Assembly (NCBI GenBank): GCA_016177925.1
Contig: JACOUH010000213.1
Span: 1-21,535, forward strand
DNA from: Planctomycetota bacterium
GTDB lineage: Bacteria > Planctomycetota > Planctomycetia > Gemmatales > Gemmataceae
Direction: 5' to 3'
DNA length: 21,535 bases
Position numbers and translations under genes: made by a program. The number at the start of each line of letters is the position of its first letter. The first letter of the stretch is position 1. Below, piece by piece: positions 230-20,076 of the stretch. The notes below the pieces were generated by a model, which worked only from the letters and a program-made list of their open reading frames with translations, did not search any database and was not told where the DNA came from.

Positions 230-1498
<1,269 letters not shown>

Positions 1499-1501
1499 GT
1501 C

Positions 1502-2464
1502 TCAAAGCTCCTGCAGAATGGACTGAAGGTGTTCGCGCAGTATCTTCTCGACCTGGGGTTTGCCTCCGATGGAGTCATCATAAAAGATGACACGATAACT
1601 GCGAATATCGAAGGGCAGATCCCTGCCGCGCTGAGCAAGCAGGATCGTTGGCTTGTTGAGCGCATGCGCGTAACCGACCTCGTAATAGACATTCTGATTC
1701 GGCGCCGTGATTTCAGCGATCACCACTTTCGCGTCTTCGATCTTCTTCTGGATGTCCTGGAAGATGATGCCCGGGCCTGGAACTTCGTCGATCCGGGCAA
1801 CTTCAAAGCCCAGCGCTTGAGCTTTGGGCCGGATCACAGTCCGGTAAAGGGTGTCGTAGGGCTCCCCAAATTGCATGGCGACAAAAGCGGTGGGTGCCTT
1901 CCGTTGAACCGCAAAATCCTGAAATAGAACGGGCGATTTGGACATCGAGTAGAGGCCGAGTTGGTTTCCCGACGGGGGGCTAGACAGCAAATGCTCCAGC
2001 ACCGGGACGTCATCCACCACCAGAGAAATTCGCTGACCTTTCTGGGTCACCGTGAGCTGATAGTCCTGGTTGTAGCGGAGATTTTGAACCGAGCCGGCTC
2101 CCCGCCGAGGGACCCAGCCGGTCATCGGCAAGAACTCCCAGATCGCATACGCCAAGTCAGAGGCCCCCAACCCGGCAACCAGGTAGCCGCCCGATTCCGA
2201 CTGGTAACCGAGCACAATCCCCGCCGACTCACCCCTCAAGGGAGAGCTGGTTCCCTCGAATCGAACCTTCGCGCGGATAAGGCCATCTCGGAATCGTTCG
2301 TCACATATCGCAAGCCCATGCGCACCAGGCAAGGGCGTTGCGCCCGGACCTTCATAGTGAACGCTGCGATCCGCGATACCCCAGGAGCCGGCAATCGGCG
2401 CCCAGCGCGTAACAGGAACCCACTTTGGCTCTGCCTGGCTGATCATTCGGGTACTCACGATCAA
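1502..2464 (-). CDS. Two-domain protein of 320 aa (start TTG 2464 or ATG 2446): N-terminal DUF1080-like (3-keto-disaccharide-hydrolase / ConA-like jelly-roll) domain fused to a C-terminal nucleoside 2-deoxyribosyltransferase-like (NDT / TIR-like fold) domain; no signal peptide
   Basis: The N-terminal part (WVPVTRWAPIAGSWGIADRS ... FRDGLIRAKVRFEGTSSPLRGESAGIVLGYQSESGGYL ... GNQLGLYSMSKSPVLFQDFAV) follows the DUF1080 pattern, W..G.W.v.dg...F.l..e.r...NSGi..R ... G.iGLQ.hg..v.F.ni.i. The C-terminal part (FVAMQFGEPYDTLYRTVIRPKAQALGFEVARIDEV ... IEDAKVVIAEITAPNQNVYYEVGYAHALNKPTILLAQ) matches the NDT-like hallmark ...aD.vvA.l.....npGT.fE.GyA.AlgKPvi.l, with a candidate catalytic Glu in YYEVGYA. GC content is visibly lower than in the neighbouring genes. 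Confidence 0.7.
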   Translation of the reverse strand: MIVSTRMISQAEPKWVPVTRWAPIAGSWGIADRSVHYEGPGATPLPGAHGLAICDERFRDGLIRAKVRFEGTSSPLRGESAGIVLGYQSESGGYLVAGLGASDLAYAIWEFLPMTGWVPRRGAGSVQNLRYNQDYQLTVTQKGQRISLVVDDVPVLEHLLSSPPSGNQLGLYSMSKSPVLFQDFAVQRKAPTAFVAMQFGEPYDTLYRTVIRPKAQALGFEVARIDEVPGPGIIFQDIQKKIEDAKVVIAEITAPNQNVYYEVGYAHALNKPTILLAQRGRDLPFDIRSYRVIFYDDSIGGKPQVEKILREHLQSILQEL

Positions 2465-2555
2465 GAGACTTCTGCTGACCTCCCGCTCACCTGGATGAAT
2501 AATATCAAAACAGTAATGCTCGATGAAGGCAATACGCGGGGCAAGCTACTTTTGC
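2465..2555 (-). promoter_or_regulatory. AT-rich spacer between the PSD gene stop and the inserted gene; putative own promoter / insertion scar
   Basis: On the minus strand the stretch cattactgttttgatattattcatcc is about 27% GC in a window of about 68% GC. Candidate sigma70-like hexamers are present but none is convincing. Confidence 0.3.
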
Positions 2556-5732
<3,177 letters not shown>

Positions 5733-8971: not shown

Positions 8972-8995
8972 GCGGGCAAGACGCCTGCCCTTACG
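8972..8995. repeat. Degenerate single copy of the REP-like palindromic unit found at 10483-10540
   Basis: gcgggcaag acgcctgccc ttacg, compared with the unit ggcaggcg aga cgcctgccctacg. It lies in the convergent 3' region between the HExxH gene and the flotillin gene. Confidence 0.3.
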
Positions 8996-10427
8996 CCGGC
9001 GGCGTCGCGCCGTTGGAGGTTTGCGGCTTGTCGAGTGCGCCCTTCGCCAGCTCCAGGACACTGGCGAGGAAGCCGACCAGCGAGCCCGTCGCGCCGCCGG
9101 CGTCGGGACCGATACTGATCGCCCGCAACTCCTCGGGCCGCGGCAGCGAGGCGGCAATCTCCGGCAGGCGAGCGATCAGCTGCGCCTGAACGTGCGGCGG
9201 CGACAGGTCGTTCTCCGCCGCTCGTCGCAGCTTGAACAGCCCCAGGTCGCGCTCCTCGCGACGGGCCCGCGCCTCGTGCGTCACGTCCTCGACCTCGACC
9301 GACGCGGCGGCCCGCAGCCGGTCGCGCTCGGCCCTGGCGCGGTCCAGGTCGATCTTGCGCTTGACCGCCTCCAGTTCCTCGGCGACACGGCGCCGCTCGA
9401 TGTCGAGCTGATGCAGGGCCAGCTCCAGGTCGGCCTCACGACGGGCGCGCTCGGTAGCGGTCCGGCCGGCGATGGCGCGCCGCTCCTCCTCCTGCTCGAC
9501 CTCGTGCCGGCGGGCGCGCTCGACCTGCTCGCGGTCGTAGTGCTCGCGCTGGCCGGTGAAGCGCAGTTCCTCGAGCTGCCGCTGGATGCCCAGCTCATCG
9601 GTCTCGCGCTTCTGGCGGTTGAGCTGTTCCTGCAAGGCAATCTGCTGGGCGGCCTCCAGTTCCGCGAGGCGAGCCAGCTTCTCGCGTTCGGCGCGGAATG
9701 GCTTCTGCAGGTTCTGCCACAGCTGCGTCGAACTGACCACCGCCTCCTTGATCTGCACGGTGACGATCTTCAGACCCAGGCCCGAGGCGGGATCTTCCTC
9801 GCGGTCGCCCTCGGCGACGGTGCGCAGCCTTTGCGTCAGTTCCTTGATGATCGGCTGCTTGTCGCTGAGGACGTCGTCGATCGACATGGTCGCGACCTTG
9901 TCCTTGATGGCGGCCTCGGCCTGCTCGCGAAGCTGGATATTCACGACCCGCATGGGATCTTCAGGATCGGAGAAGTCGAGCTTGCGATAGGCGGTGCGGA
10001 TGTCGTCGACGATCCACTGCACGTACGCCTGGACGAGGATGCCCTGGCGCTCGACGCAGACGCAGCGGGCGTTGATGAGCAGCGTCTGCACGACGGCGGG
10101 GACGACGAGAAAGGCGTCGGTGTAGGGGTTGTACGGGAAGGAGATGCCCATGCCGACATGCAACGGCTCGGGCCGGCCGCGGCGGGTATGGACGACGTAG
10201 ACATTGGGCGGCACGACGACAGTCTTCCAACGCCAGAAGCCGGTAATGCGGTAGTCGACGCCCCGCACAGGCTCGCTCTTCGCGGGCCCTGCCATAGCCA
10301 TAGAGTCGATTCCCTCGATCGCCGCCCCGGGTGCCGGCTTGGCTCGCCGGACGCGCTTCAGCTCGCCCTCGACCGCCGCCTGTTCCTGCATGACCTGGTT
10401 CAGGTAGTCGTTCTGCACTTGCTGCAT
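8991..10427 (-). CDS. SPFH/band-7 (flotillin-like) protein with a long C-terminal coiled coil, 478 aa
   Basis: ATG at 10427 with a gaggg box upstream. The SPFH core is YRITGFWRWKTVVVPPNVYVVHTRRGRPEPLHVGMG ... IVDDIRTAYRKLDF ... LGLKIVTVQIKEAVV. It is followed by a stretch rich in E, R, A, L and Q that is typical of the flotillin coiled coil. Confidence 0.85.
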   Translation of the reverse strand: MQQVQNDYLNQVMQEQAAVEGELKRVRRAKPAPGAAIEGIDSMAMAGPAKSEPVRGVDYRITGFWRWKTVVVPPNVYVVHTRRGRPEPLHVGMGISFPYNPYTDAFLVVPAVVQTLLINARCVCVERQGILVQAYVQWIVDDIRTAYRKLDFSDPEDPMRVVNIQLREQAEAAIKDKVATMSIDDVLSDKQPIIKELTQRLRTVAEGDREEDPASGLGLKIVTVQIKEAVVSSTQLWQNLQKPFRAEREKLARLAELEAAQQIALQEQLNRQKRETDELGIQRQLEELRFTGQREHYDREQVERARRHEVEQEEERRAIAGRTATERARREADLELALHQLDIERRRVAEELEAVKRKIDLDRARAERDRLRAAASVEVEDVTHEARARREERDLGLFKLRRAAENDLSPPHVQAQLIARLPEIAASLPRPEELRAISIGPDAGGATGSLVGFLASVLELAKGALDKPQTSNGATPPA

Positions 10428-10482
10428 GGATGTGCCCTCGTGAGAGATGGTTCATCAGCATTATACGCTCGTCGACCTCTCC

Positions 10483-10540
10483 CGTAGGGCAGGCGACCCG
10501 CCTGCCCTACGCGGGAGGCAGGCGAGACGCCTGCCCTACG
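10483..10540. repeat. Two tandem REP-like palindromic units (13-bp arms, 3-nt loops)
   Basis: Unit 1 is cgtagggcaggcg acc cgcctgccctacg, a perfect palindrome. Unit 2 is cgggaggcaggcg aga cgcctgccctacg, with an 8-bp perfect core. A degenerate copy lies at 8972-8995. The units sit in the divergent intergenic region between the flotillin and RluA genes. Confidence 0.6.
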
Positions 10541-10636
10541 GAAGAGGGGCGGGCGAGCCGGTTGCCGGACGCGGGGGTACAATACGGGGCATCGGGAAGA
10601 GGCCCCTCTCCTCCCCTGGCGCACTGGACACGTGTC

Positions 10637-11344
10637 GTGGATTTGCCTCCTCTGGAAATCCTGTACGAAGACAATCATTGCCTCGCCATCTACAAGCCCA
10701 GCGGCGCCCTGTCGACGCACTACGAGGGCAAGGAAGAAACCCTTGACCGCCAGGTGAAGGCCTACCTCAAGGAGAAGTACAAGAAGCCGGGCGACGTTTT
10801 CCTTGGCGTGGTGCATCGACTCGACCGGCCGGTGTCGGGCGTCTTGCTGTTCGCGCGGACGAGCAAGGCGGCGGAGCGGATCGCGCGGCAGTTCCGCGAG
10901 GGGACCGTCGACAAGGTGTACTGGGCGATCGTCGAGGGTGAACTGGTGTCGTCGGCCGGCTCGCTGGAGGACTGGCTGCTAAAGGACCGCCGCGCCGGCC
11001 GGGTCGGTCGTGTCGAGGTGGTCGAGCCGCGCACGACCGGGGCCCGGCAAGCACTCCTGCACTTCCAGCGCAAGGCGGTCCACGGCGAAGTGACGTGGGT
11101 GGAGGTGCGGCCGCAGACGGGGCGGACGCACCAGCTGCGCGTGCAGCTGGCGCACCACGGACACCCGATCTACGGCGACGCGAAGTACGGCTCGGTCCAC
11201 ACCTTCGGCCGGTCCATCGGCCTGCACGCACGCGCGCTCACCTTCCTGCACCCGGTCCGTTACGAGCCGATCACGCTGACCGCGGAGGTGCCGCGGCAGT
11301 GGCGCGGCCGGTTCGCGTACCTGCTAAGGGAGGGCCAGGTGTGA
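10637..11344 (+). CDS. RluA-family pseudouridine synthase (about 235 aa)
   Basis: The family motif HRLDRPVSGVLLFARTSKAA is present, with a conserved N-terminus ILYEDNHCLAIYKPSGALS and C-terminus GRTHQLRVQLAHHGHPIYGDAKYG. The start is probably GTG 10637; the ORF track begins at 10430 inside the repeat region. Confidence 0.85.
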   Translation: MDLPPLEILYEDNHCLAIYKPSGALSTHYEGKEETLDRQVKAYLKEKYKKPGDVFLGVVHRLDRPVSGVLLFARTSKAAERIARQFREGTVDKVYWAIVEGELVSSAGSLEDWLLKDRRAGRVGRVEVVEPRTTGARQALLHFQRKAVHGEVTWVEVRPQTGRTHQLRVQLAHHGHPIYGDAKYGSVHTFGRSIGLHARALTFLHPVRYEPITLTAEVPRQWRGRFAYLLREGQV

Positions 11345-12360
11345 GCGTCCTGAACGCCATTCGCGATCTGATTCAGCAGGACATCGGCGGCCGCGGCCTG
11401 GCGACGGACCCGGCGGAGAACCTGCTGACGCTGACGGCGGGTGACTTCACCTCGGCCTGTCGCAGCATCGCCGGCTCGCCACGGCAGCCCTCGCTGGCGG
11501 TCGTGACGGGCTTCTGGATTCCGCACGGGACGCCGCCCGCCGGCGAGACGGACGGCCCGCTCGGTGCCCTGTTCCTGGCCCGCGCGCTGGCCCCCCTGGG
11601 TTTCCGCGTGGTGCTGGCGACCGACGCGTTCTGTCTGAAGGCGCTGGAGGCGGGCCTGCGCGCGTGCGGCCTGGAGAAGCAGGTACACCTGGTGGAACTG
11701 CCGCCCGCCGCGGAGGGGACCGACGCGATGGCCTACTGGTCGGCATTCGCCAACGTGGCGGGCACGCCGACTCACCTCGTCGCCCTGGAGCGTGTCGGCC
11801 CGTCCCACTTGCCCGATTCGCTGCGAACACAGCCCGCGACAACCCCGGACGACCTGCTGCAATTCCTGTCCGAGATCCCCGTCGAGCACCACGACCGCTG
11901 TCACACGATGCGCGGGCTCGACATCACGTCGCAGATGCGACCGGCGCATCTCCTGTTCGAGGCGGCACGCCGCGTCCGCCCGTCGCTGCGGACAATCGCC
12001 ATCGGCGACGGCGGCAACGAGATTGGCATGGGCAAGCTGCCGTGGCGAGCCCTGCGGCGGAACATTCCCAACGGCGGGTTGGTGGCCTGCCGGGTGCCGG
12101 CCGACGACCTGATTGTGTGCGGCGTGAGTAACTGGGGAGCGTACGCTTTGGCTGCGGGCGTGCTACACCTGCTTGGCATCGACGACGACCCAACGCTATT
12201 CGCCGTGGAGCACGAGCGGGAGTTGCTGCGCGTGATGGTCGAGGAAGGTCCGCTCGTCGACGGCATGACGGGCCAACCGTCCGTCAGCGTGGACGGCCTC
12301 GACTTCGAGCGCTACGCGGAGCCGCTGCGGCAGTTGCCGGCCATCCTGTCCGGACCCTGA
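11341..12360 (+). CDS. DUF4392-like (D-glutamate-cyclase-like) protein, about 339 aa
   Basis: GTG at 11341 overlaps the RluA stop (GTGA). The protein begins VSVLNAIRDLIQQDIGG... and carries the glycine-rich block TIAIGDGGNEIGMGKLPW that I associate with DUF4392. The family call comes from memory of that motif only. Confidence 0.6.
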   Translation: MSVLNAIRDLIQQDIGGRGLATDPAENLLTLTAGDFTSACRSIAGSPRQPSLAVVTGFWIPHGTPPAGETDGPLGALFLARALAPLGFRVVLATDAFCLKALEAGLRACGLEKQVHLVELPPAAEGTDAMAYWSAFANVAGTPTHLVALERVGPSHLPDSLRTQPATTPDDLLQFLSEIPVEHHDRCHTMRGLDITSQMRPAHLLFEAARRVRPSLRTIAIGDGGNEIGMGKLPWRALRRNIPNGGLVACRVPADDLIVCGVSNWGAYALAAGVLHLLGIDDDPTLFAVEHERELLRVMVEEGPLVDGMTGQPSVSVDGLDFERYAEPLRQLPAILSGP

Positions 12361-12525
12361 GACCGCGTGAGCTGCCCGGCTCCGACAGTGTGCTGCGGAA
12401 GGTCCGCGAACCTTGAACGCGCCCTCCGTCTCTGATAGAGTGACAATCAATCGCAATTGTCGTCTTGACCGTCCTTACGATGGTCCGTGCCGGATCGCTA
12501 TTACCCCGGCAAGAAAGAAGCTCAC

Positions 12526-12584
12526 GTAGGTCAGGCTTTCCAGCCTGACTCGTCTGGGACGTCAGGCTGGAAAGCCTGACCTAC
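12526..12584. repeat. Perfect nested inverted repeat (24-bp arms, each arm itself a small hairpin) in the 283-bp leader upstream of speH
   Basis: gtaggtcaggctttccagcctgac tcgtctgggac gtcaggctggaaagcctgacctac. Each arm contains gtcaggct ttcc agcctgac. Confidence 0.6.
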
Positions 12585-12643
12585 TTCCGTGCCGAGGTAA
12601 TAGATGCCCCCAGGAGACTTACAACCGGGAGGGCTCTCCCATC

Positions 12644-13015
12644 ATGATCGTCGGAACCGAGTGGCTGGTGGACGCCGAGGGTTGTCGCCCGGAACTGCTG
12701 AGCGACCTGCCCGCCGTGCGCGCAACCTGTGAACGGATCCTCAACGACCTCGAGCTGCGGACCGTCGGGGAGGGCCTTGCCCATCAGTTCCCGTCGCCGG
12801 GCGGCATCACGCTGATGTACCTGCTGACCGAGTCGCACCTGACCTGTCACACTTATCCCGAGCACAGGATCGCCCTGTTCAGCCTGTCGTGCTGCCGTCC
12901 TCGCCCGCGCTGGGACTGGGAGACGCAGCTGGCCCGGCTGCTCGGGGCAGCTCGCGTGACGGTCCGCTGCCTGGCGCGCGGTGCGGTCGTCGAGCCCGAG
13001 CCCGCCGCGCTCTAA
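12644..13015 (+). CDS. speH: S-adenosylmethionine decarboxylase proenzyme, small class 1A (pyruvoyl-dependent), 123 aa
   Basis: ATG at 12644 with a gggaggg Shine-Dalgarno sequence. The diagnostic self-cleavage and active-site block is LLTESHLTCHTYPEH (the ES|H motif). The size matches the SpeH/SpeD class 1A enzymes. Confidence 0.9.
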   Translation: MIVGTEWLVDAEGCRPELLSDLPAVRATCERILNDLELRTVGEGLAHQFPSPGGITLMYLLTESHLTCHTYPEHRIALFSLSCCRPRPRWDWETQLARLLGAARVTVRCLARGAVVEPEPAAL

Positions 13016-13029
13016 CGGGGAGAAGCGCC

Positions 13030-15006
13030 ATGAGCCCCACGCATGCGACCTGCCCCTCCTGCGAAACGGTGCTGACCATCAGTCACGACGCCACGGTCAG
13101 CGTCGTCTGCAAGAAGTGTCATGCCGTCCTGGAGCGGCGCGGCGACAGCTTCCGCCAGGTCGGGACCGCTCCCGTCGTCATCCCCACGCGCTCGACCGTC
13201 GCGAATGGCATGGACGGCACCTACAACGGAACTCGCTTTACCGTTACCGGCCACGTCCAGCTCAGCAACGAGGACGGCGCCACCTGGGACGAATATTATC
13301 TCGGTTTCGAGGACGGCGCGTGCGGCTGGCTGGCCCAGGCCCAGGGCCGCCTGCTCCTGCTGTTCCGCGCCGACCTGCCCGAAGACCTGCTCCTGCCCGC
13401 CTTCGAGAGCCTCGACCTCAAAAATTCTCTCGACCTGATGCCGGGCCTGGGGGCCTTGCACGTCGTCGAGAAGGGCCAGGCCCGGGTCGAAGCTGCCAGC
13501 GGTCAGGTCCCCTACCTGCTGCGCCCCGGCGAGACGTACCCTTACGTCGACCTCGCCGCCATGAGCAGCGCCTTTGCCTCGCTCGACTTCAGCACGCAGC
13601 CGGCTACGCTCTTCGTCGGCCGTGAGATTACCTTTGCCGACCTCGGCATGGAGCCGGCCGCTGCCGAGCCCGCCGCTCTGGGCGAGTCGCTGTACTGCAC
13701 CGAGTGCGGCGCCCGCATGGAGGTGCGCAACCCGGGCCGGGCCCAACGTGTTACCTGCCTGCAATGCCGGGCGCTCTTCGATGTCAGCTCGGGCCGGGCA
13801 GCGTTCATCGGCACCCAGGACGAGGCCCCAGTCCAACCTGTCACGCCGCTGGGCTCGGTCGGTCACTTCGCTGCCGGCGACCTGACCCTGATCGGCTTCC
13901 TGCAGCGCAAGACGACCGACGAGGAGGGGACGACCTGGTTCTGGGAAGAGTACCTGCTCAGCGACGGCGAGGGCGGCTATCGCTGGCTGGTCTGCAGCGA
14001 TCGTCACTGGACGCTGTTCGAGCCGATCACCAAGGGCTCGGACATCCGACCGGTTGTCTACCACGCCCACCGCGCCTACAAGCTCTTCCAGCACGGCCAG
14101 GCGCAAGTCACCTATGTCGAGGGCGAGTTCTACTGGAACGTCGCCGCCGGCCAGGCGACCTACACGGCCGACTTTGTCCATCCGCCCTACATGTTGTCCG
14201 CCGAGTATTCCGAGGCCAGCAGCACCAAGGGCGAGTCCAACTGGACGCACGGCTTCTACCTGCCCGTTGCCGAGGTCGAGGCGGCGTTCGGCCTCTCCAG
14301 GTTGCCGCGGCCGAGGACGGTCGGTCCCAATCAGCCCTTCAACGGTTCGCAGATTTATCCGATCTGGTTCATGGCCAGTGCCGTCCTCGTCCTCCTTGGC
14401 GTGTTCTTCCTGATGCTGACCCCGTCGGAGAAGGTCTTCGACGAGACGTTCACCATCAGCACACCGCGCGACCCGGAGGAGCGGAAGAAGCTGGAGGAAC
14501 GCGTCGAGACGGGCAAGGGGATGCAGACGGTGGAGCGGCACACTATTCGGCCCGAGAAAAAGGTGTCGCTGAAGGGCCTGAAGAACATCAAGGTGACGGC
14601 CCACGCGCGCGACATTCCGTCGAACAGCTGGGTGGAGGTGGCCGGCTACCTGATCGACGACGACACGCTGGAAGTGCAGCCGTTCGAGCTTACCCTGGAG
14701 CATTACCAGGGCGTCGAAGACGGCGAAGCGTGGACCGAGGACGACCGCGAGAAAACCACGTACCTATCATCGCTGCCTGGCGGCGACTACGTGCTCCGCG
14801 TCGACCTCTACCGCCAGCCGCGGACGGAGTTCGGCGGCGGACCGCTCAGTGTCCGCCTCGTCATCGAGCAGGGCCATCCGCGCTGGTGGCACCTGCTTGT
14901 GGCGCTGGTGCTGCTGGCCATCATCCCGCTGATTACCTGGCTGGTGCAGAAGTCCTTCGAGACGCGGCGGTGGCAGAACAGTAACGTCAACCCGACCGGC
15001 GCCTGA
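13030..15006 (+). CDS. Uncharacterised membrane protein, 658 aa: two tandem zinc-ribbon plus beta-domain repeats (DUF4178-like?), a TM helix, a charged ~170-aa domain, and a C-terminal TM helix
   Basis: ATG at 13030 with gggaga 8 nt upstream, 14 nt after the speH stop. Repeat 1 is CPSCETVLTI...CKKCHAVL ... WDEYYLGFEDGACGWLA. Repeat 2 is CTECGARMEV...CLQCRALF ... WFWEEYLLSDGEGGYRWLV. The TM helices are IYPIWFMASAVLVLLGVFFLML and WWHLLVALVLLAIIPLITWLV. The DUF4178 assignment is tentative. Confidence 0.75.
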   Translation: MSPTHATCPSCETVLTISHDATVSVVCKKCHAVLERRGDSFRQVGTAPVVIPTRSTVANGMDGTYNGTRFTVTGHVQLSNEDGATWDEYYLGFEDGACGWLAQAQGRLLLLFRADLPEDLLLPAFESLDLKNSLDLMPGLGALHVVEKGQARVEAASGQVPYLLRPGETYPYVDLAAMSSAFASLDFSTQPATLFVGREITFADLGMEPAAAEPAALGESLYCTECGARMEVRNPGRAQRVTCLQCRALFDVSSGRAAFIGTQDEAPVQPVTPLGSVGHFAAGDLTLIGFLQRKTTDEEGTTWFWEEYLLSDGEGGYRWLVCSDRHWTLFEPITKGSDIRPVVYHAHRAYKLFQHGQAQVTYVEGEFYWNVAAGQATYTADFVHPPYMLSAEYSEASSTKGESNWTHGFYLPVAEVEAAFGLSRLPRPRTVGPNQPFNGSQIYPIWFMASAVLVLLGVFFLMLTPSEKVFDETFTISTPRDPEERKKLEERVETGKGMQTVERHTIRPEKKVSLKGLKNIKVTAHARDIPSNSWVEVAGYLIDDDTLEVQPFELTLEHYQGVEDGEAWTEDDREKTTYLSSLPGGDYVLRVDLYRQPRTEFGGGPLSVRLVIEQGHPRWWHLLVALVLLAIIPLITWLVQKSFETRRWQNSNVNPTGA

Positions 15007-15031
15007 GCCGGCCGTTCCGGGGAGAATCCCG

Positions 15032-15217
15032 ATGAGCAGATTCGCGATTTTCTACTCGATCGTGGCGGCCTCCATTGTCCTCTTCTACACCGTTTCGACG
15101 GCGTGCGGCTGGGAGTATTTCCATTCCGAAAAGGAGAAGACCACCGAGGAGGCGAAGCGGGAAGGCTATCGGGGCGGACACTTCATCTTCATCCCCGGTC
15201 CGCGCGGCGGCAAATGA
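15032..15217 (+). CDS. Small single-TM membrane protein (61 aa), translationally coupled to speE
   Basis: ATG at 15032 with ggggagaa 5-6 nt upstream. The TM helix is FAIFYSIVAASIVLFYTV. The stop TGA at 15215-15217 overlaps the speE ATG at 15214 (ATGA). Confidence 0.55.
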   Translation: MSRFAIFYSIVAASIVLFYTVSTACGWEYFHSEKEKTTEEAKREGYRGGHFIFIPGPRGGK

Positions 15218-16779
15218 ACCGGTCGTTCTTCCTGTTCCTGAACGTCCTGATCATCGCCACCTGTGGCCTGGTCTACGAGCTGCTCGCCGGGACCGCGGCC
15301 AGCTACCTGCTGGGCGACACGGTCTTTCAGTTCTCGACCGTCATCGGCGTCTACCTGTTCGCCATGGGCGTCGGCTCCTGGTTGTCGCGCTTTATCGACA
15401 AGCAACTGGCCTGGGTGTTCGTCGAGGTCGAACTGGCCGTCGCCCTGCTGGGCGGGCTGGCGTCGCCGATCTTCTTCCTCGGCCACGCCTATCTGAGTTT
15501 CTTCCAGGTCGTCCTGTATGCGGTGGTCTTTTTGATCGGAACACTGGTCGGCCTCGAGATCCCGCTCCTGATGCGAATCCTCGAGGGCACTATCGAGTTC
15601 AAGGACCTCGTTTCGCGGGTCCTGGCATTCGACTATGTCGGTGCCCTGATCGCGTCGCTGGCCTTTCCGATGCTGCTGTTGCCGAGCCTTGGCATCATGC
15701 GGACGTCGCTGGCGATTGGCATCGTCAACGCGCTGGTGGGCCTGTGGGCGACCTGGCTGCTGCGGCCACAGATCAAGGGGAGCGTGACGGCCCTGCGCGC
15801 CCGGGCGATCCTGGTGATCGTCCTGCTCGGGGTTGGCATCGTCTTCTCGAACCGGCTAATCCTCTTCGCCGAGGAGGGTATCTACGCCGACCCGGTGGTC
15901 TTCACGCGCACGACGCCGTACCAGCGCATTGTCGTGACGCGCGGCACGGGCGGGGTCTTCCGGCTGTACCTCAACGGCCATTTGCAGTTCAACTCGGTGG
16001 ACGAGTATCGCTACCACGAGGCGCTCGTCCACCCGGCAATGGCAGCGGTCGTGAGCCCGAAGCGCGTGCTGGTTCTGGGCGGCGGCGACGGGCTGGCGCT
16101 GCGCGAGGTGCTGCGCCACCCGAACGTCGAATCGGTGACGCTGGTCGATCTCGATCCGGGCATGACGCGGCTGTCGGACCGTTATCCGCCGCTGGGTCAA
16201 CTCAACGAGCAGGCTTACCACGATGCCAAGGTGCGTGTTGTCAACGAGGACGCCTACATCTGGGTGCAGAAGGCCCCACCGGACGGCCGGCCCTTCGATG
16301 TGATCCTCATCGACTTTCCCGATCCGCACAGTTACGCCTTGGGGAAGCTGTACACGACGCACTTCTACCGGCTGCTGAAACGACACCTGACGCGCGACGG
16401 AGCGATCGCGGTGCAGTGTACGTCGCCCTTCATGGCGCCCAAGACATTCTGGTGTATCGTGAAGACGCTGGAGGCGTCCGGCTATCGGGTGAAGCCGTAT
16501 CACGTCGCTGTGCCATCGTTCTTCGGCGTCTGGGGCTTCTCGCTGGCCAAGCGCGAGGAGGACGAACTGAAGGTGCCGGAGCGAGTGCCGCGCGACCTGC
16601 GCCGGCCGGACGGAACGCCAGTGCGGCTGCGGTTCCTCAACGACGACGCTCTCAAGGCGATGTTCGTGTTCCCCGAGGACATGCAATTGCCAGCCGACGA
16701 GAAGGTGGAGGTCAACCGTCTCGACAACCAGGTGGTGGTGCAATATCACGAGGCGGAGTGGAAGCGCTACGTCCGATAG
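15214..16779 (+). CDS. speE: Spermidine synthase (polyamine aminopropyltransferase) with an N-terminal polytopic membrane domain, 521 aa
   Basis: About 200 aa carrying roughly 7 TM helices precede a classical SpeE catalytic core: YQRIVVTRG...LYLNGHLQF, VLVLGGGDGLALREVLRHPNVESVTLVDLDPGM and DVILIDFPDP. Confidence 0.9.
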   Translation: MNRSFFLFLNVLIIATCGLVYELLAGTAASYLLGDTVFQFSTVIGVYLFAMGVGSWLSRFIDKQLAWVFVEVELAVALLGGLASPIFFLGHAYLSFFQVVLYAVVFLIGTLVGLEIPLLMRILEGTIEFKDLVSRVLAFDYVGALIASLAFPMLLLPSLGIMRTSLAIGIVNALVGLWATWLLRPQIKGSVTALRARAILVIVLLGVGIVFSNRLILFAEEGIYADPVVFTRTTPYQRIVVTRGTGGVFRLYLNGHLQFNSVDEYRYHEALVHPAMAAVVSPKRVLVLGGGDGLALREVLRHPNVESVTLVDLDPGMTRLSDRYPPLGQLNEQAYHDAKVRVVNEDAYIWVQKAPPDGRPFDVILIDFPDPHSYALGKLYTTHFYRLLKRHLTRDGAIAVQCTSPFMAPKTFWCIVKTLEASGYRVKPYHVAVPSFFGVWGFSLAKREEDELKVPERVPRDLRRPDGTPVRLRFLNDDALKAMFVFPEDMQLPADEKVEVNRLDNQVVVQYHEAEWKRYVR

Positions 16780-16800: not shown

Positions 16801-16896
16801 CTTAGAAGCGGTTTCAAAACTTTGTGGGGCAGGTCGCTGACCTGCCTGGAGCTGGCAGGTCAGCGACCTGCCCCACGTTTTGAAACCGCTACTTAG
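16801..16896. mobile_element. MITE-like nested-palindrome element (about 86 bp) with terminal inverted repeats, flanked by 5-bp direct repeats CTTAG
   Basis: The left arm aagcggtttcaaaactttgtggggcaggtcgctgacctgcc (16806-16846) and the right arm ggcaggtcagcgacctgccccacgttttgaaaccgct (16854-16890) are inverted copies with one 3-nt bulge. Each arm has an inner hairpin ggcaggtc gc tgacctgcc. CTTAG occurs at 16801-16805 and 16892-16896. The element lies between the speE stop and the oxidase gene. Confidence 0.45.
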
Positions 16897-16918: not shown

Positions 16919-18595
16919 ATGGCGAAGCGTCCCTCGTGGCAGATCGGGCCGACGCGACGCGACGTGTTGGCCACCCTGCTGGGCGTGCCGGTGGCCCTCG
17001 CCGCGGGGTGTTCGCGCAAGCCGCCGCCGCTGCCGGAGGGCCGGATCGTCGGCGCCTCCGCCGGCATCGGTCATCGGCTGCGTGACGGCTTGCGCCCCCA
17101 GCCGGCCGAGGGTGCCTGGCAGGAACGGGCGGTCGTCATCGTTGGCGGCGGCATCGCCGGGCTGTCGGCAGCATGGCGTCTGCTCCTGGCCGGCTTCGAC
17201 GACTTCGTCCTCCTCGAACTGGAGCCGCGGCCGGGCGGCACGTCGGGCAGCGGTGCCTCGGACGTCTCCGCCTACCCCTGGGGGGCCCATTACCTGCCGG
17301 TGCCGATGAGGGAGAACCGGGCCCTCGTCCGCCTGCTCCGCGAGATGAATGTCATCGAGGGCGAGGACAAAGACGGCGAGCCGGTCGTCGGCGAGCAGTA
17401 CCTGATCCGCGACCAGAAGGAACGCATCTTCCACCGCGACGCGTGGCATCCTTGCGAGGAGCCCTACCTGCACGCCGGCGAGAGCGGCGAGGACATCGCC
17501 CAGCGCAAGCGATTCGACGCCGAGGTCGATTCCTGGGTCAACTTTCGCGACGGTAAAGGACGGCGGGCCTTCGCCATCCCGATCGCCCGCGGCTCGGACG
17601 ACGCGACCGTGACCGCACTGGACCGGCTGTCGATGGCCGACTGGATGCGCCGGAAAGGGCTGACGTCGCCGCGGTTACGCTGGATGGTCGACTACGCTTG
17701 TCGCGACGACTACGGAGCCACCGCGGAGGACGTCAGCGCCTGGGCGGGCCTGTTCTACTTCGCCGCCCGCAAGCGCAAGGCCCACGGCGATTCGCAGCCG
17801 TTCATGGCGTGGCCGGAGGGCAACGGACGTATCGTTCGCCACTTCGCGGAGCGACTCCGCTCGTCCGGGAAGGAGCTACTGCGGCTGGGCCTGGCGGTCA
17901 GCGAGGTGGGGCCCGTGGAGCGCGCCGGCAAGCCGGGCGTGGAGGTCATCGCCTGTGACCATGAGGGCCGCCAGGTGATCGGCTACCGGGCCGAGCGAGT
18001 GATCTTCGCGGCGCCGCAGTTTGTGGCGCCGTACGCGATCCGGTCGCTGCCGCGTGAGCGGATCGCCCTGGCGTCGTCCTTCGACTACAGCGTCTGGATG
18101 GTGGCGAACCTGGAGTTGAAGGATCGTCCAGCGGGCCCATTCCTCGCCTGGGACAATATCCTCTACGAGAGCCCGTCCTTGGGCTATGTCGTGGCGACGC
18201 ACCAGACCGGGACGGACTACGGGCCGACGGTGCTGACCTACTACTATCCGCTGACCGCCGGCAGCGCGCGCGCAGCCCGCACGACGCTGCTGGGGACCGG
18301 CTGGGAGGAATGGGCGGAGGTGGCGCTGGCAGACCTGGGCCGGGCGCATGACGACATCCACTCGCTGGTCGAGCGGCTGGACGTGATGCGCTGGGGCCAC
18401 GCGATGCCGCGGCCGAAACCGGGCACGGTCTGGGGAAGCGAACGGCCCAAGGCGGCCCAGCCCTACCGCAACGTCTCCTTCGCCCACTCCGACCTGAGTG
18501 GTGTTGGCATCATGGAGGAGGCGTTCTACCAGGGCGTGCGGGCGGCCGAGGAAGTCCTGGCCGCTCACGGCGTGAAGTCCGCAACGATTCTTTAA
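16919..18595 (+). CDS. FAD-dependent oxidoreductase, flavin amine-oxidase-like, predicted Tat-exported lipoprotein (558 aa)
   Basis: ATG at 16919 with ggaagagg upstream. The Tat-like and lipobox signal is TRRDVLATLLGVPVALAAGCS. The dinucleotide-binding motif is VVIVGGGIAGLSAAWRLL, and the length and C-terminal region are typical of amine oxidases. Confidence 0.8.
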   Translation: MAKRPSWQIGPTRRDVLATLLGVPVALAAGCSRKPPPLPEGRIVGASAGIGHRLRDGLRPQPAEGAWQERAVVIVGGGIAGLSAAWRLLLAGFDDFVLLELEPRPGGTSGSGASDVSAYPWGAHYLPVPMRENRALVRLLREMNVIEGEDKDGEPVVGEQYLIRDQKERIFHRDAWHPCEEPYLHAGESGEDIAQRKRFDAEVDSWVNFRDGKGRRAFAIPIARGSDDATVTALDRLSMADWMRRKGLTSPRLRWMVDYACRDDYGATAEDVSAWAGLFYFAARKRKAHGDSQPFMAWPEGNGRIVRHFAERLRSSGKELLRLGLAVSEVGPVERAGKPGVEVIACDHEGRQVIGYRAERVIFAAPQFVAPYAIRSLPRERIALASSFDYSVWMVANLELKDRPAGPFLAWDNILYESPSLGYVVATHQTGTDYGPTVLTYYYPLTAGSARAARTTLLGTGWEEWAEVALADLGRAHDDIHSLVERLDVMRWGHAMPRPKPGTVWGSERPKAAQPYRNVSFAHSDLSGVGIMEEAFYQGVRAAEEVLAAHGVKSATIL

Positions 18596-18682: not shown

Positions 18683-19216
18683 TCAGGTCGGCGAGTCGGG
18701 AAGTACCAGTCCCTCATACTGCACCAGCAGGCCCAACAGCGGGGCCTCGGCGCGGGCGACGATGTCACACCCGTCCTCGCGGCCGACCTCGACGCCGGTC
18801 CCCCGCGGCGCCAGCCAGAGCGGCCAATTCACGCCCAGCACCCATGCCTGGACCGTCTCCAGCCGCAGCGCCGGCCCGTCGACCGTGACGCGGAAGGCCA
18901 GCCGCAGCGGCCCGAGCGCCTCGATCAGCAGCCCGCCCGCGGTCCACTGCACCGACTCCAGCCGGTGTCCGTCGAAGTCACGCACCCAGCGCTCGCGGTT
19001 GCCCTCGGGCACGACGCGCAGGCGCAGCGGCACCTGCTCGCCGGCGGGAGGCAGCCGGCCGAGGCGGCACAGCAGGCCGCGCAGCGGTCCCCTGCCGCGC
19101 GTGATGCGGAAGACAGCGCGGAAGTGTCGTTCCTGCTCGACGTCGTGAAAGTCACGCAGCGTCGGCGGCAGGGAGTCGAAGGCGTCGCCGAGAAGACGAC
19201 GGTAGAGGGCGGGCAT
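18683..19216 (-). CDS. Hypothetical protein (about 177 aa), possibly DUF4166-like, downstream of and overlapping the FGE gene
   Basis: ATG at 19216 (MPALYRRLLGDAFDSLPPTLRDFHD...) lies 40 nt inside the 3' end of the FGE gene. The longer ORF-track start at 19540 is rejected because it runs through the FGE coding region. The family call is very tentative. Confidence 0.45.
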   Translation of the reverse strand: MPALYRRLLGDAFDSLPPTLRDFHDVEQERHFRAVFRITRGRGPLRGLLCRLGRLPPAGEQVPLRLRVVPEGNRERWVRDFDGHRLESVQWTAGGLLIEALGPLRLAFRVTVDGPALRLETVQAWVLGVNWPLWLAPRGTGVEVGREDGCDIVARAEAPLLGLLVQYEGLVLPDSPT

Positions 19217-19254
19217 TGGCAGTGCGTCCTCGTAGTAGACCGGAGAGGAGACGC

Positions 19255-20076
19255 TCAGGTCGCGGCCGTCGCGGTGCGGAAGCCGTTCCACGCCTCCCGC
19301 GCCTGCGGCGGCCAATGCACCTTGCGCGTGCAGCCGAGCACCTCGTGAAAAGCCATCGGCGTCGCAAAACCCCCACCGCGATCGACTTTGTCCGTAATCG
19401 ACCCGGCGCCGAGCTGCTGGCGGAAGGCGTCGTCCAGGCAGGGGTCGCGGAGCAGTCCCGTCTGGATGCAGAGGCGGCCGAACGGAGGCCAGTACCAGTC
19501 GGCGGTCCAGTTGTTGATGTTGCCGGCCATGTCGTGACAACCGTAGGGGCTAGCGCCGGCGGGATAGAGCCCGGTTGGCGTGGTGCGGCCGACGCGGCCA
19601 TCGAAGTTGGCCCGGTCATTGCCCGGCCAGTCGTCGCCCCAGGGATAGCGGCGGCCGTCGCTGCCGCGCGCTGCCTTCTCCCACTCGGCGTCGCTCGGCA
19701 GGCGCCGGCCGGCCCAGCGGGCGTAGGCGTCGGCCTCGTACCAGCTGACGCCGGCGACCGGCTGATCGGGGCCGTCCCAGCCCGGCTCTTCCCAGGTCAG
19801 CGGCCGGCCGGTGCGCGTTCGACAGCGCCACAGCCAGCCCTCCGGCGTCCACCAGCGCGGGTCCTCGTAACCGCCGGCCGCCAGGAAGCGAGCGAAGCGG
19901 ACGTTGGTGACCGGGTAGACGTCGATCCAGAAGGCAGACAACTCGACCGTTCGCTGCGGCTTCTCGTGGTCCTCGGCGAGAAGGTCGCCGTCGGCCAGGC
20001 CCATCAGGAAGGGCCCCGCCGGCACGAGCACCATGAGCGCAGCGTCGACCGGGTCTTCGCGAGTCTCGAGAGTCAT
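19255..20076 (-). CDS. Formylglycine-generating enzyme (FGE/SUMF1) family protein, 273 aa
   Basis: ATG at 20076. The sequence MVLVPAGPFLMG ... PQRTVELSAFWIDVYPVTNVRFARFL ... GVSWYEADAYARWAGRRLPSDAEWEKAARG ... GNINNWTADWY ... RGGGF...GFR is the FGE-sulfatase domain signature. Confidence 0.85.
   Translation of the reverse strand: MTLETREDPVDAALMVLVPAGPFLMGLADGDLLAEDHEKPQRTVELSAFWIDVYPVTNVRFARFLAAGGYEDPRWWTPEGWLWRCRTRTGRPLTWEEPGWDGPDQPVAGVSWYEADAYARWAGRRLPSDAEWEKAARGSDGRRYPWGDDWPGNDRANFDGRVGRTTPTGLYPAGASPYGCHDMAGNINNWTADWYWPPFGRLCIQTGLLRDPCLDDAFRQQLGAGSITDKVDRGGGFATPMAFHEVLGCTRKVHWPPQAREAWNGFRTATAAT

Follow-up and report, generated by a model that had tools for sequence, protein, structure and literature searches.

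A Conserved Gene Cassette with a Membrane-Fused Aminopropyltransferase and a Lysine-Terminated Microprotein in a Planctomycetota Contig

Gene Content and Organization of the Locus

A stretch of 21,535 nucleotides (nt) from the metagenome-assembled genome of a Planctomycetota bacterium of the Gemmataceae (assembly GCA_016177925.1, contig JACOUH010000213.1, positions 1 to 21,535 of the forward strand; hereafter, the window) harbors a compact gene cluster built around a spermidine synthase homolog (SpeE), whose catalytic domain is fused to seven transmembrane (TM) helices. Judging from the sequence features described below, the cluster might be a machine for aminopropylation across the membrane, using an acceptor other than the canonical ones, and not a housekeeping spermidine operon, a reading to which we give about even credence. 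Three observations are new. A microprotein of 61 amino acids (aa) encoded in the cluster is a universal component of the cassette and represents a family so far unannotated, whose C-terminal residue is always lysine; an amine oxidase encoded downstream carries an export signal, in most cases together with a lipobox; and the catalytic domain of SpeE is predicted to lie in the periplasm.

In the list of open reading frames (ORFs), four genes follow one another on the forward strand: a speH-like gene for an S-adenosylmethionine (SAM) decarboxylase homolog (AdoMetDC; 12644-13015, 123 aa), a gene for a DUF4178 protein (13030-15006, 658 aa), the microprotein gene (15032-15217, 61 aa), and speE (15214-16779, 521 aa). 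They are followed, on the same strand, by a gene for a flavin amine oxidoreductase (16919-18595, 558 aa; PF01593, E = 4.7e-17). A first-pass annotation of this DNA, based on the letters and their translations, had proposed the first four as a polyamine cluster. These are real ORFs at the coordinates given above, the chosen start codons are backed by alignment with homologs, and homologs of all four occur in the same gene order across phyla, so that the pattern is not the result of chance. The end of the locus, which had been set at 16779, was instead placed too early: it left outside the amine oxidase, a conserved downstream member that must be added to the cassette. In the source contig, the 61-aa protein is annotated as hypothetical protein HYS12_16250.

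The tight spacing claimed for these genes was found as described, with 14 nt between speH and the 658-aa gene, 25 nt between the latter and the 61-aa gene, and an ATGA stop/start overlap (15214-15217) leading into speE. The strong ggggaga Shine-Dalgarno sequence that had been attributed to all three downstream genes does precede positions 13030 (acggggagaagcgccATG) and 15032 (ccggggagaatcccgATG) but not speE, whose start reads ggcggcaaATG; sequence inspection also disclosed gggaggg as the Shine-Dalgarno sequence of speH itself. The scans for intrinsic terminators and sigma-70 promoters in the window gave matches no commoner than in shuffled sequence.

Distribution and Gene Order across Genomes

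The neighborhood of speE was surveyed in one genome per GTDB species, using an alignment of four SpeE orthologs as the query. From at least 597 matches, the 80 best-scoring loci were retained, and the cassette components were mapped onto them with purpose-built hidden Markov models (HMMs).

In 62 loci, the DNA upstream of speE extends over at least 3.5 kb. Of these, 55 contain the two DUF4178 modules together with the module of two TM helices (2TM), while DUF350 (PF03994, YjfL) was found in 54, AdoMetDC in 50, and a Band-7-SHOCT protein in 11. A flavin amine oxidase follows SpeE in 56 of the 65 loci with enough downstream DNA. The order is constant, that is, (Band-7-SHOCT), AdoMetDC, DUF4178 protein, microprotein, DUF350, SpeE, oxidase, and (Mem390), where the members in brackets are facultative and Mem390 is an unannotated multi-TM protein detected in 27 of the 49 loci with at least 4 kb downstream. 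The cassette was found in Acidobacteriota, Planctomycetota, Myxococcota, Gemmatimonadota, and Competibacteraceae and, in metagenomes, also in Obscuribacterales; among the carriers that can be cultivated are Corallococcus coralloides (L076) and Archangium (L058). The first-pass annotation had regarded the two middle genes as belonging with an AdoMetDC and a SpeE of the membrane type, and their conservation next to this SpeE, with the DUF4178 protein present in 55/62 loci, strongly supports that view.

The window departs from the common arrangement in lacking DUF350. A tblastn search with two DUF350 proteins gave nothing at E <= 1 in the window, and DUF350 is missing also from its closest relative (locus L001, whose DUF4178 protein shares 59% identity with that of the window), while it is present in 54 of the 55 other cassette loci. 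Mem390 is absent from the window. This protein (L001 14467-15642; L004 13155-14306) is about 385 aa long, contains several TM helices and the conserved, histidine-rich motifs LAYLAVFHFxRQ, HGxPY, and HYxLDGFIWR, has no Pfam family, and might be an additional enzyme of the cassette. In L001, the region between speE and the oxidase gene (12032-12749) encodes two further small proteins, both absent from the window: one of 118 aa belongs to no family, and the other, of 119 aa, is a coiled-coil protein in which a TM segment is located at the C-terminus.

The Lysine-Terminated Microprotein

The 61-aa microprotein of the window consists of one N-terminal TM helix, a GWE motif, and a tail rich in glycine, aromatic, and basic residues, ending in RGGK-stop. 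It had been tentatively assigned to DUF350, members of which should give a Pfam match and contain at least two TM helices per unit. The assignment does not stand: the protein contains a single TM segment and has no Pfam match, even at E <= 1, and no NCBIfam match. A small ORF follows the DUF4178 gene in every cassette locus checked (about 75 loci from six or more lineages). An HMM built on three sequences recovered it in 45 loci, and the remaining loci were inspected, revealing a matching ORF in each; an automated filter accepted 60 of 74 loci, the other 14 being already found by the HMM or by inspection.

The overall plan is the same at the checked loci, with an N-terminal TM helix followed usually by GW(E), a glycine/aromatic/basic tail, and a terminal lysine. 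Most of the microproteins end in GGK-stop, with the variants RGK, AGK, FGK, IGK, MGK, HHK, YHK, and SHK. In a cross-phylum alignment of 30 sequences, the terminal lysine is the only invariant column. A search with this alignment retrieved relatives in 638 database clusters, all of them labeled "hypothetical" and none with a Pfam domain; among the matches listed, the terminal lysine is present in 125/125 relatives and GGK in 114, to be compared with a background of 3.6% of the ORFs in cassette loci ending in lysine. The charges calculated for the microproteins are +0.82 for the N-terminal flank of the helix, +0.08 for the C-terminal flank, and +3.5 for the whole tail.

The microprotein travels with the DUF4178 protein. 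It is absent at the eight SpeE loci without DUF4178, and it is kept with AdoMetDC and the DUF4178 protein where speE is not adjacent, as in a planctomycete locus (L086, 3588-5976) in which the three genes are found with neither SpeE nor the oxidase next to them. This suggests that the AdoMetDC/DUF4178/microprotein trio is a separable sub-module.

The Membrane-Fused Aminopropyltransferase

The seven-TM (7TM) N-terminal extension of SpeE reported by the first-pass annotation is supported by both the hydrophobic segments and the AlphaFold2 model, and it covers about 215 aa (15214-15855, forward strand). Its N-terminus is predicted to be inside, and it contains the conserved in-membrane acidic residues E22, E115, and D140. 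It is followed by a linker helix and the aminopropyltransferase (APT) domain (15856-16779, forward strand; PF01564, Spermine_synth, E = 4.9e-36), predicted on the periplasmic side. The whole protein matches NF002956/PRK03612 with 660.2 bits (cutoff 472), its residues 4-519 aligning with positions 19-521 of the 522 of the profile. SpeE keeps GGGDG (with D292), D312/D314, D346, D367/D370, and Q401; across 78 homologs, the columns of G289, G291, D314, D346, D367, D370, and Q401 are invariant, and those of G290, D292, and G293 nearly so. It is known that the acidic residue of the GxG(D/E)G motif selects decarboxylated SAM (PMC10349129).

The AlphaFold2 model, built on the alignment of these homologs, is very confident (predicted local distance difference test, pLDDT, 96.1; predicted template modeling score, pTM, 0.90) and comprises seven TM helices (pLDDT 96), a linker helix, and a spermidine-synthase fold. 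The best matches of the catalytic domain in the Protein Data Bank (PDB) are the triamine/agmatine APT of T. thermophilus, a plant thermospermine synthase, and SpeE of P. calidifontis. The nearest solved relatives of this domain include enzymes with a large acceptor pocket, namely the agmatine/triamine APT and thermospermine synthase. The 7TM domain gave no match among solved structures in a PDB fold search.

As for the orientation in the membrane, lysines and arginines were counted in 84 SpeE homologs. Their mean total is 9.1 for the N-terminus taken together with loops 2-3, 4-5, and 6-7, against 0.98 for loops 1-2, 3-4, and 5-6. In the 15-residue stretch that follows TM7, the averages are 0.1 for lysine plus arginine and 3.65 for aspartate plus glutamate. 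Given seven helices and a roughly nine-fold positive-inside bias, the catalytic domain is therefore predicted to be periplasmic. The buried and conserved E22, E115, and D140 would suit the passage of a cationic donor or acceptor.

Proteins of this kind are widespread, since the membrane-fused aminopropyltransferase relatives found at E <= 1e-30 form 1,280 clusters at 50% identity. M. tuberculosis Rv2601 (speE) is presumably of the same type.

The Other Proteins of the Cassette

The AdoMetDC homolog (12644-13015) matches PF02675 (AdoMet_dc) with E = 1.3e-19 and 71 bits (cutoff 25), over positions 3-107 of the 107 of the profile. It keeps the self-processing motif ESHLTCHTYPE and the catalytic cysteine, and it can be aligned with the T. 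maritima (1tlu) and Aquifex (2iii) enzymes across the Glu-Ser, His, and Cys motifs, with TESHLTCHTYPE opposite T. maritima SESHLTIHTWPE and LSCC opposite FTCG. The protein has no signal peptide and is therefore taken to be cytoplasmic. The label "class 1A" previously given to it has to be replaced: in the nomenclature of the Michael laboratory, AdoMetDCs of about 125-160 aa are class 1b, class 1a being the 264-aa E. coli type (PMC11107197, PMC10407285).

The 658-aa protein (13030-15006) was rightly suspected of containing DUF4178, as the Pfam scan gave PF13785 with E = 1.7e-23 and 83.7 bits (cutoff 25) in two stretches; the same family is present in 60/60 homologs. Its description as a zinc-ribbon membrane protein is equally sound, since the protein contains two TM helices as well as two ribbons of the form CxxC...CxxC, one made of C8/C11/C27/C30 and the other of C223/C226/C243/C246. 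The first half is composed of zinc ribbon 1 (aa 6-33), DUF4178 module 1, zinc ribbon 2 (aa 220-249), and DUF4178 module 2 (aa 274-411). The second half is composed of a TM helix (aa 438-463), a beta-sandwich of about 150 aa (aa 467-614; motif IEYYxGVxxGExWxEG), a second TM helix (aa 619-649), and a tail containing FExxRWxxS. The best-conserved residues of module 2 are W305, E307, Y308, W319, E366, Y368, W369, D381, E392, and E402; both in this module and in the periplasmic domain (motif at about 560-590), the top conserved residues are acidic and aromatic. Such a mixture is typical of polyamine- or amine-binding pockets. The literature yielded no experimental study of DUF4178 or of the M. tuberculosis cluster Rv2597-Rv2601.

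The oxidase (16919-18595) carries at its N-terminus (...TRRDVLATLLGVPVALAAGC) both a twin-arginine signal, TRRDVLA, and a lipobox, LAAGC, and it is therefore a predicted lipoprotein exported by the twin-arginine translocation (Tat) system. Among its orthologs, the RR motif is present in 68/70 and a lipobox-like cysteine in 51/70. Its matches to solved structures are confined to the N-terminus, which binds flavin adenine dinucleotide.

Comparison with Known Systems

The cassette type is already catalogued, as an uncharacterized one, in Ravi et al. 2024 (mSystems, PMC11237479), which describes an operon class with a 7TM-spermidine-synthase, DUF350 (YjfL), and DUF4178; hence, the window is a variant without DUF350 and is not unique. 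The variants described there include a CesT/Tir-PspA dyad, DUF4247 + DUF2617 (M. tuberculosis Rv2597-Rv2601), and Band-7-2TM-SHOCT with AdoMetDC and a polyamine oxidase, and DUF4178 is predicted to be intracellular and beta-rich, with a function proposed from context only (PMC11237479). The class and the window have in common the 7TM-spermidine synthase, the DUF4178 protein, AdoMetDC, and a flavin amine oxidase in one co-directional cluster. The window differs from the class in containing no DUF350, no PspA/CesT, no adjacent Band-7-SHOCT, and no DUF4247 + DUF2617 at the head of the operon; moreover, its DUF4178 is doubled, with one zinc ribbon per copy, and both copies are fused to the 2TM module with the beta-sandwich. 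A term search of the available text of Ravi et al. found no mention of a lysine-terminated microprotein, of Tat or lipobox signals, or of a periplasmic orientation (PMC11237479).

The class is a closer published match to the window than the P. aeruginosa surface-spermidine locus PA4773-PA4774, which had been invoked as an analogy. In the P. aeruginosa locus (PA4773-PA4774(-PA4775), speD2-speE2), a class 1b AdoMetDC homolog is located directly upstream of the aminopropyltransferase, as in the window, and the locus is linked to envelope protection. The analogy fails because PA4774 is a soluble thermospermine synthase of 349 aa without a membrane domain (PMC11107197), whereas the window enzyme is a 521-aa 7TM fusion; in addition, the P. 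aeruginosa locus is under PmrAB regulation and has no DUF4178 protein, no microprotein, and no Tat oxidase, and no two-component genes are adjacent to the cassette in the window.

An architectural parallel is found in fungi. NHMT (A. nidulans AN4663; Batth et al. 2023) is a protein resident in the endoplasmic reticulum that methylates the N-terminal histidine of secreted lytic polysaccharide monooxygenases and needs its TM domain (PMC10349129). NHMT (558 aa) and SpeE of the window (521 aa) are nearly identical in layout and size, each consisting of a 7TM domain up to about residue 215 and of a spermidine-synthase-like Rossmann domain (PMC10349129). The authors found the 7TM sequence of NHMT only in fungi. 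NHMT uses SAM and transfers a methyl group because an isoleucine replaces the acidic residue of GxG(D/E)G (PMC10349129); in SpeE of the window, the aspartate is kept and AdoMetDC is adjacent, so that aminopropyl transfer would be expected. In E. coli, the yjfIJKLMC/ygiBC genes belong to a sibling class in Ravi et al., with DUF350 (YjfL) in a PspA context, and join a polyamine to a peptide (PMC11237479, PMC11762307). YjfC and YgiC are ATP-grasp peptide-spermidine ligases whose physiological substrates are unknown, according to papers citing Pederick et al. 2023 (PMC11762307, PMC10948618). These ligases act on a peptide carboxylate and preformed spermidine, while the window encodes an aminopropyltransferase dependent on decarboxylated SAM and has no proteins in common with the E. 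coli genes. Taken together, NHMT and YjfC/YgiC make peptide- or protein-linked amine chemistry a recurring theme around such genes.

The fusions of the major facilitator superfamily (MFS) type with a spermidine synthase domain (MFS-SpdSyn; NF037959) resemble the window in having a membrane domain fused to a spermidine-synthase-like domain and in clustering with AdoMetDC (class 1b/2), often with DUF350 as well; with about 12 TM helices against the seven of the window SpeE, they constitute a different membrane-fusion family. Li, Kurihara, Kim, Liang, and Michael reportedly described in 2019, in Biochem J, MFS-SpdSyn fusions with AdoMetDC and often DUF350 that made no spermidine and whose acceptor was not putrescine. 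A paper of 2025 that cites Li et al. 2019 states that the bacterial homologs of a fungal membrane-APT-like fusion, the only non-fungal ones, made neither spermidine nor spermine (PMC12803844).

Possible Function and Alternative Explanations

If the cassette is a trans-membrane aminopropylation machine, the cytoplasmic class 1b AdoMetDC homolog, whose motifs are all in place, would supply decarboxylated SAM, and 7TM-SpeE would transfer the aminopropyl group from it, on the outer side of the membrane, to an amine that is not one of the canonical acceptors. A periplasmic catalytic domain would imply that the cationic donor must be carried through the membrane by the 7TM domain, a passage in which the buried E22, E115, and D140 might take part. 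The oxidase lipoprotein, with its Tat and lipobox signals, might process the product or the acceptor in the same compartment. The protein with two zinc-ribbon-DUF4178 units followed by TM helix, beta-sandwich, and TM helix would be a non-catalytic scaffold or an amine sensor bridging cytoplasm and periplasm, a role proposed because of its all-beta binding-module fold and its conserved acidic and aromatic residues. The microprotein would be an obligatory partner and the leading candidate for the role of aminopropylation acceptor or primer; alternatively, it might act as a tether or mimic a substrate. The output would most likely be a cationic modification of the cell envelope tied to membrane stress, as proposed for the wider class by Ravi et al. 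(PMC11237479).

The sequences directly show the gene content and its conservation, the catalytic motifs, the export signals, the number of helices, and the invariance of the terminal lysine; the enzyme activities, the side on which the catalytic domain lies, the acceptor, and the role of the oxidase are inferred from them. Several points weigh against this interpretation. The orientation of SpeE is predicted by the positive-inside rule only, and the microprotein lysine may lie in another compartment than the SpeE catalytic domain. We know of no bacterial precedent for a periplasmic enzyme using decarboxylated SAM. The NCBIfam equivalog matched by SpeE is named "polyamine aminopropyltransferase", and all the catalytic residues for diamine aminopropylation are present. 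The AdoMetDC homolog does not reach the equivalog cutoff of TIGR03330 (48.3 bits vs. 75.65), and its activity is presumptive because some class 1b homologs neofunctionalized to become arginine or ornithine decarboxylases (PMC10407285). "Polyamine oxidase" is a family-level label only, the oxidase being too divergent for that call. Lastly, the negative results on spermidine come from MFS-type fusions, whereas SpeE of the window matches their model NF037959 only weakly (34 bits vs. a cutoff of 40).

The main rival, possible if unlikely, is the view of the first-pass annotation. The product of the cassette would then be an ordinary free polyamine, such as spermidine, norspermidine, or thermospermine, made at the membrane and either exported or held at the surface, with the middle proteins as accessories for export or regulation and the oxidase in a catabolic or homeostatic role. 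The AdoMetDC and aminopropyltransferase motifs are intact and the equivalog name is in keeping with this idea, and the conserved acidic residues of the 7TM domain would also suit a polyamine channel. On the other hand, free polyamine synthesis gives no role to the invariant C-terminal lysine of a co-conserved microprotein and takes no account of a Tat-exported oxidase or of a catalytic domain predicted to be periplasmic; it would also have to take place outside the cytoplasm, where we know of no accumulation of diamines. Surface polyamines protect P. aeruginosa (Johnson et al. 2012, as cited in PMC11107197), but the analogy fails on architecture, PA4774 being soluble and 349 aa long (PMC11107197), and the bacterial membrane-APT fusions tested gave no spermidine or spermine (PMC12803844). 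A further explanation, in our opinion very unlikely, is that the acceptor amine belongs to a lipid of the envelope, such as phosphatidylethanolamine or a lipid containing ornithine or lysine, or to a polymer such as peptidoglycan, and is presented by the 7TM domain, the microprotein and the DUF4178 protein being regulatory. SpeE is integral to the membrane, with the catalytic domain packed on the TM bundle in the model (pTM 0.90), and the oxidase is a predicted lipoprotein at the same membrane face. MprF, EptA, and ArnT are charge-modifying systems that would be comparable in purpose; nevertheless, we know of no aminopropylated lipids or peptidoglycan in the cassette phyla. In other lineages, both among the loci compared here and in Ravi et al. 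(PMC11237479), membrane-stress genes of the Band-7/SHOCT, PspA, and flotillin types accompany the cassette, which would fit a lipid or polymer acceptor, yet no lipid-binding feature was identified in the cassette, and the invariant terminal residue of the microprotein would be left unexplained.

It might also be argued that the genes have no joint function, i.e., that an ordinary speH-speE pair has been interrupted by the insertion of unrelated membrane genes, or that the small ORF is an annotation artefact of GC-rich DNA. High-GC DNA does yield many spurious ORFs, and the strong palindromes flanking the block are possible mobile repeats. This explanation is effectively refuted, and almost certainly wrong, because the same order is found in 55/62 informative loci from at least five phyla, the small ORF has its 638 database relatives with conserved features, and the genes show the translational coupling described above (ATGA overlap, gaps of 14 and 25 nt).

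Within the trans-membrane aminopropylation reading, a more specific proposal can be made, namely that the microprotein is a membrane-tethered acceptor or primer made by the ribosome, that SpeE adds one or more aminopropyl groups of decarboxylated SAM to the epsilon-amine of its C-terminal lysine on the external side of the cytoplasmic membrane, and that the oxidase trims, releases, or oxidizes the resulting chain. We regard this proposal as quite unlikely, and its estimate is kept low because the orientation of the microprotein is ambiguous and no physical tie links it to the active site. If true, no bacterial system of protein aminopropylation, or of polyamine synthesis primed by a peptide, would precede it, with the microprotein supplying the missing substrate of membrane-fused aminopropyltransferases; its chemistry would parallel that of hypusine and of the lysine-linked long-chain polyamines of diatom silaffins, and its architecture that of the fungal NHMT. 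The presence, in one cassette, of a lysine-ended microprotein, an exported oxidase, and a catalytic domain predicted to be periplasmic makes the question of the acceptor directly testable. If a protein or some constituent of the envelope turned out to be the acceptor, the reaction would count as a new kind of cationic modification of the envelope, with a bearing on membrane stress and on resistance to cationic antimicrobials; should only spermidine be made, the pathway would be ordinary and only its accessories unusual. The membrane-fused aminopropyltransferases that are paired with AdoMetDC account for well over a thousand clusters, among others in soil Acidobacteriota, Myxococcota, and Planctomycetota.

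Flanking Elements and Neighboring Genes

The four-gene block is flanked by inverted repeats. A perfect 24-nt inverted repeat with an 11-nt loop (12526-12584) is located 60 nt upstream of speH, at the left edge of the block, and a perfect 23-nt inverted repeat with a 7-nt loop (16824-16876), not scored as an intrinsic terminator, separates speE from the gene of the oxidase. Several imperfect palindromes of 28-31 nt are nested at 10468-10547. In L001, where 174 nt separate speE from the microprotein gene, this interval is filled by a different GC-rich palindrome. A T-tract is absent from every one of these palindromes, which may be repetitive extragenic palindrome (REP)-like elements or hairpins for RNA stability.

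The genes upstream of the cassette in the window encode a D-glutamate-cyclase-like protein and RluA. The former gene (11341-12360, forward strand; PF14336, E = 1.8e-64) is directly upstream of the cassette; it is not next to the cassette in L001, L003, and L004. A Band-7/SPFH (flotillin-like) gene of 478 aa (8991-10427, reverse strand) is located 2.2 kb upstream of the cassette. It was considered as the Band-7-SHOCT member of the cassette, but this idea found no support: the gene is on the opposite strand, two unrelated genes lie between it and the cassette, and its product lacks a SHOCT domain and does not resemble the Band7-SHOCT protein of L004. Furthermore, it is not conserved in L001, and its proximity to the cassette may be coincidental.

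In the remainder of the window, the listed ORFs of a DUF4166 gene (18683-19540) and an FGE-sulfatase-type gene (19255-20076), both on the reverse strand, overlap by about 285 nt. The DUF4166 domain begins at residue 124 and, therefore, the true start codon is probably located further downstream. The phylum assignment is confirmed by the genes at 230-5732 (reverse strand), where a 1058-aa protein with PSCyt1/PSCyt2/PSD1 and a DUF1501 protein of 422 aa form a typical planctomycete pair, together with a 320-aa protein that weakly matches nucleoside 2-deoxyribosyltransferase.

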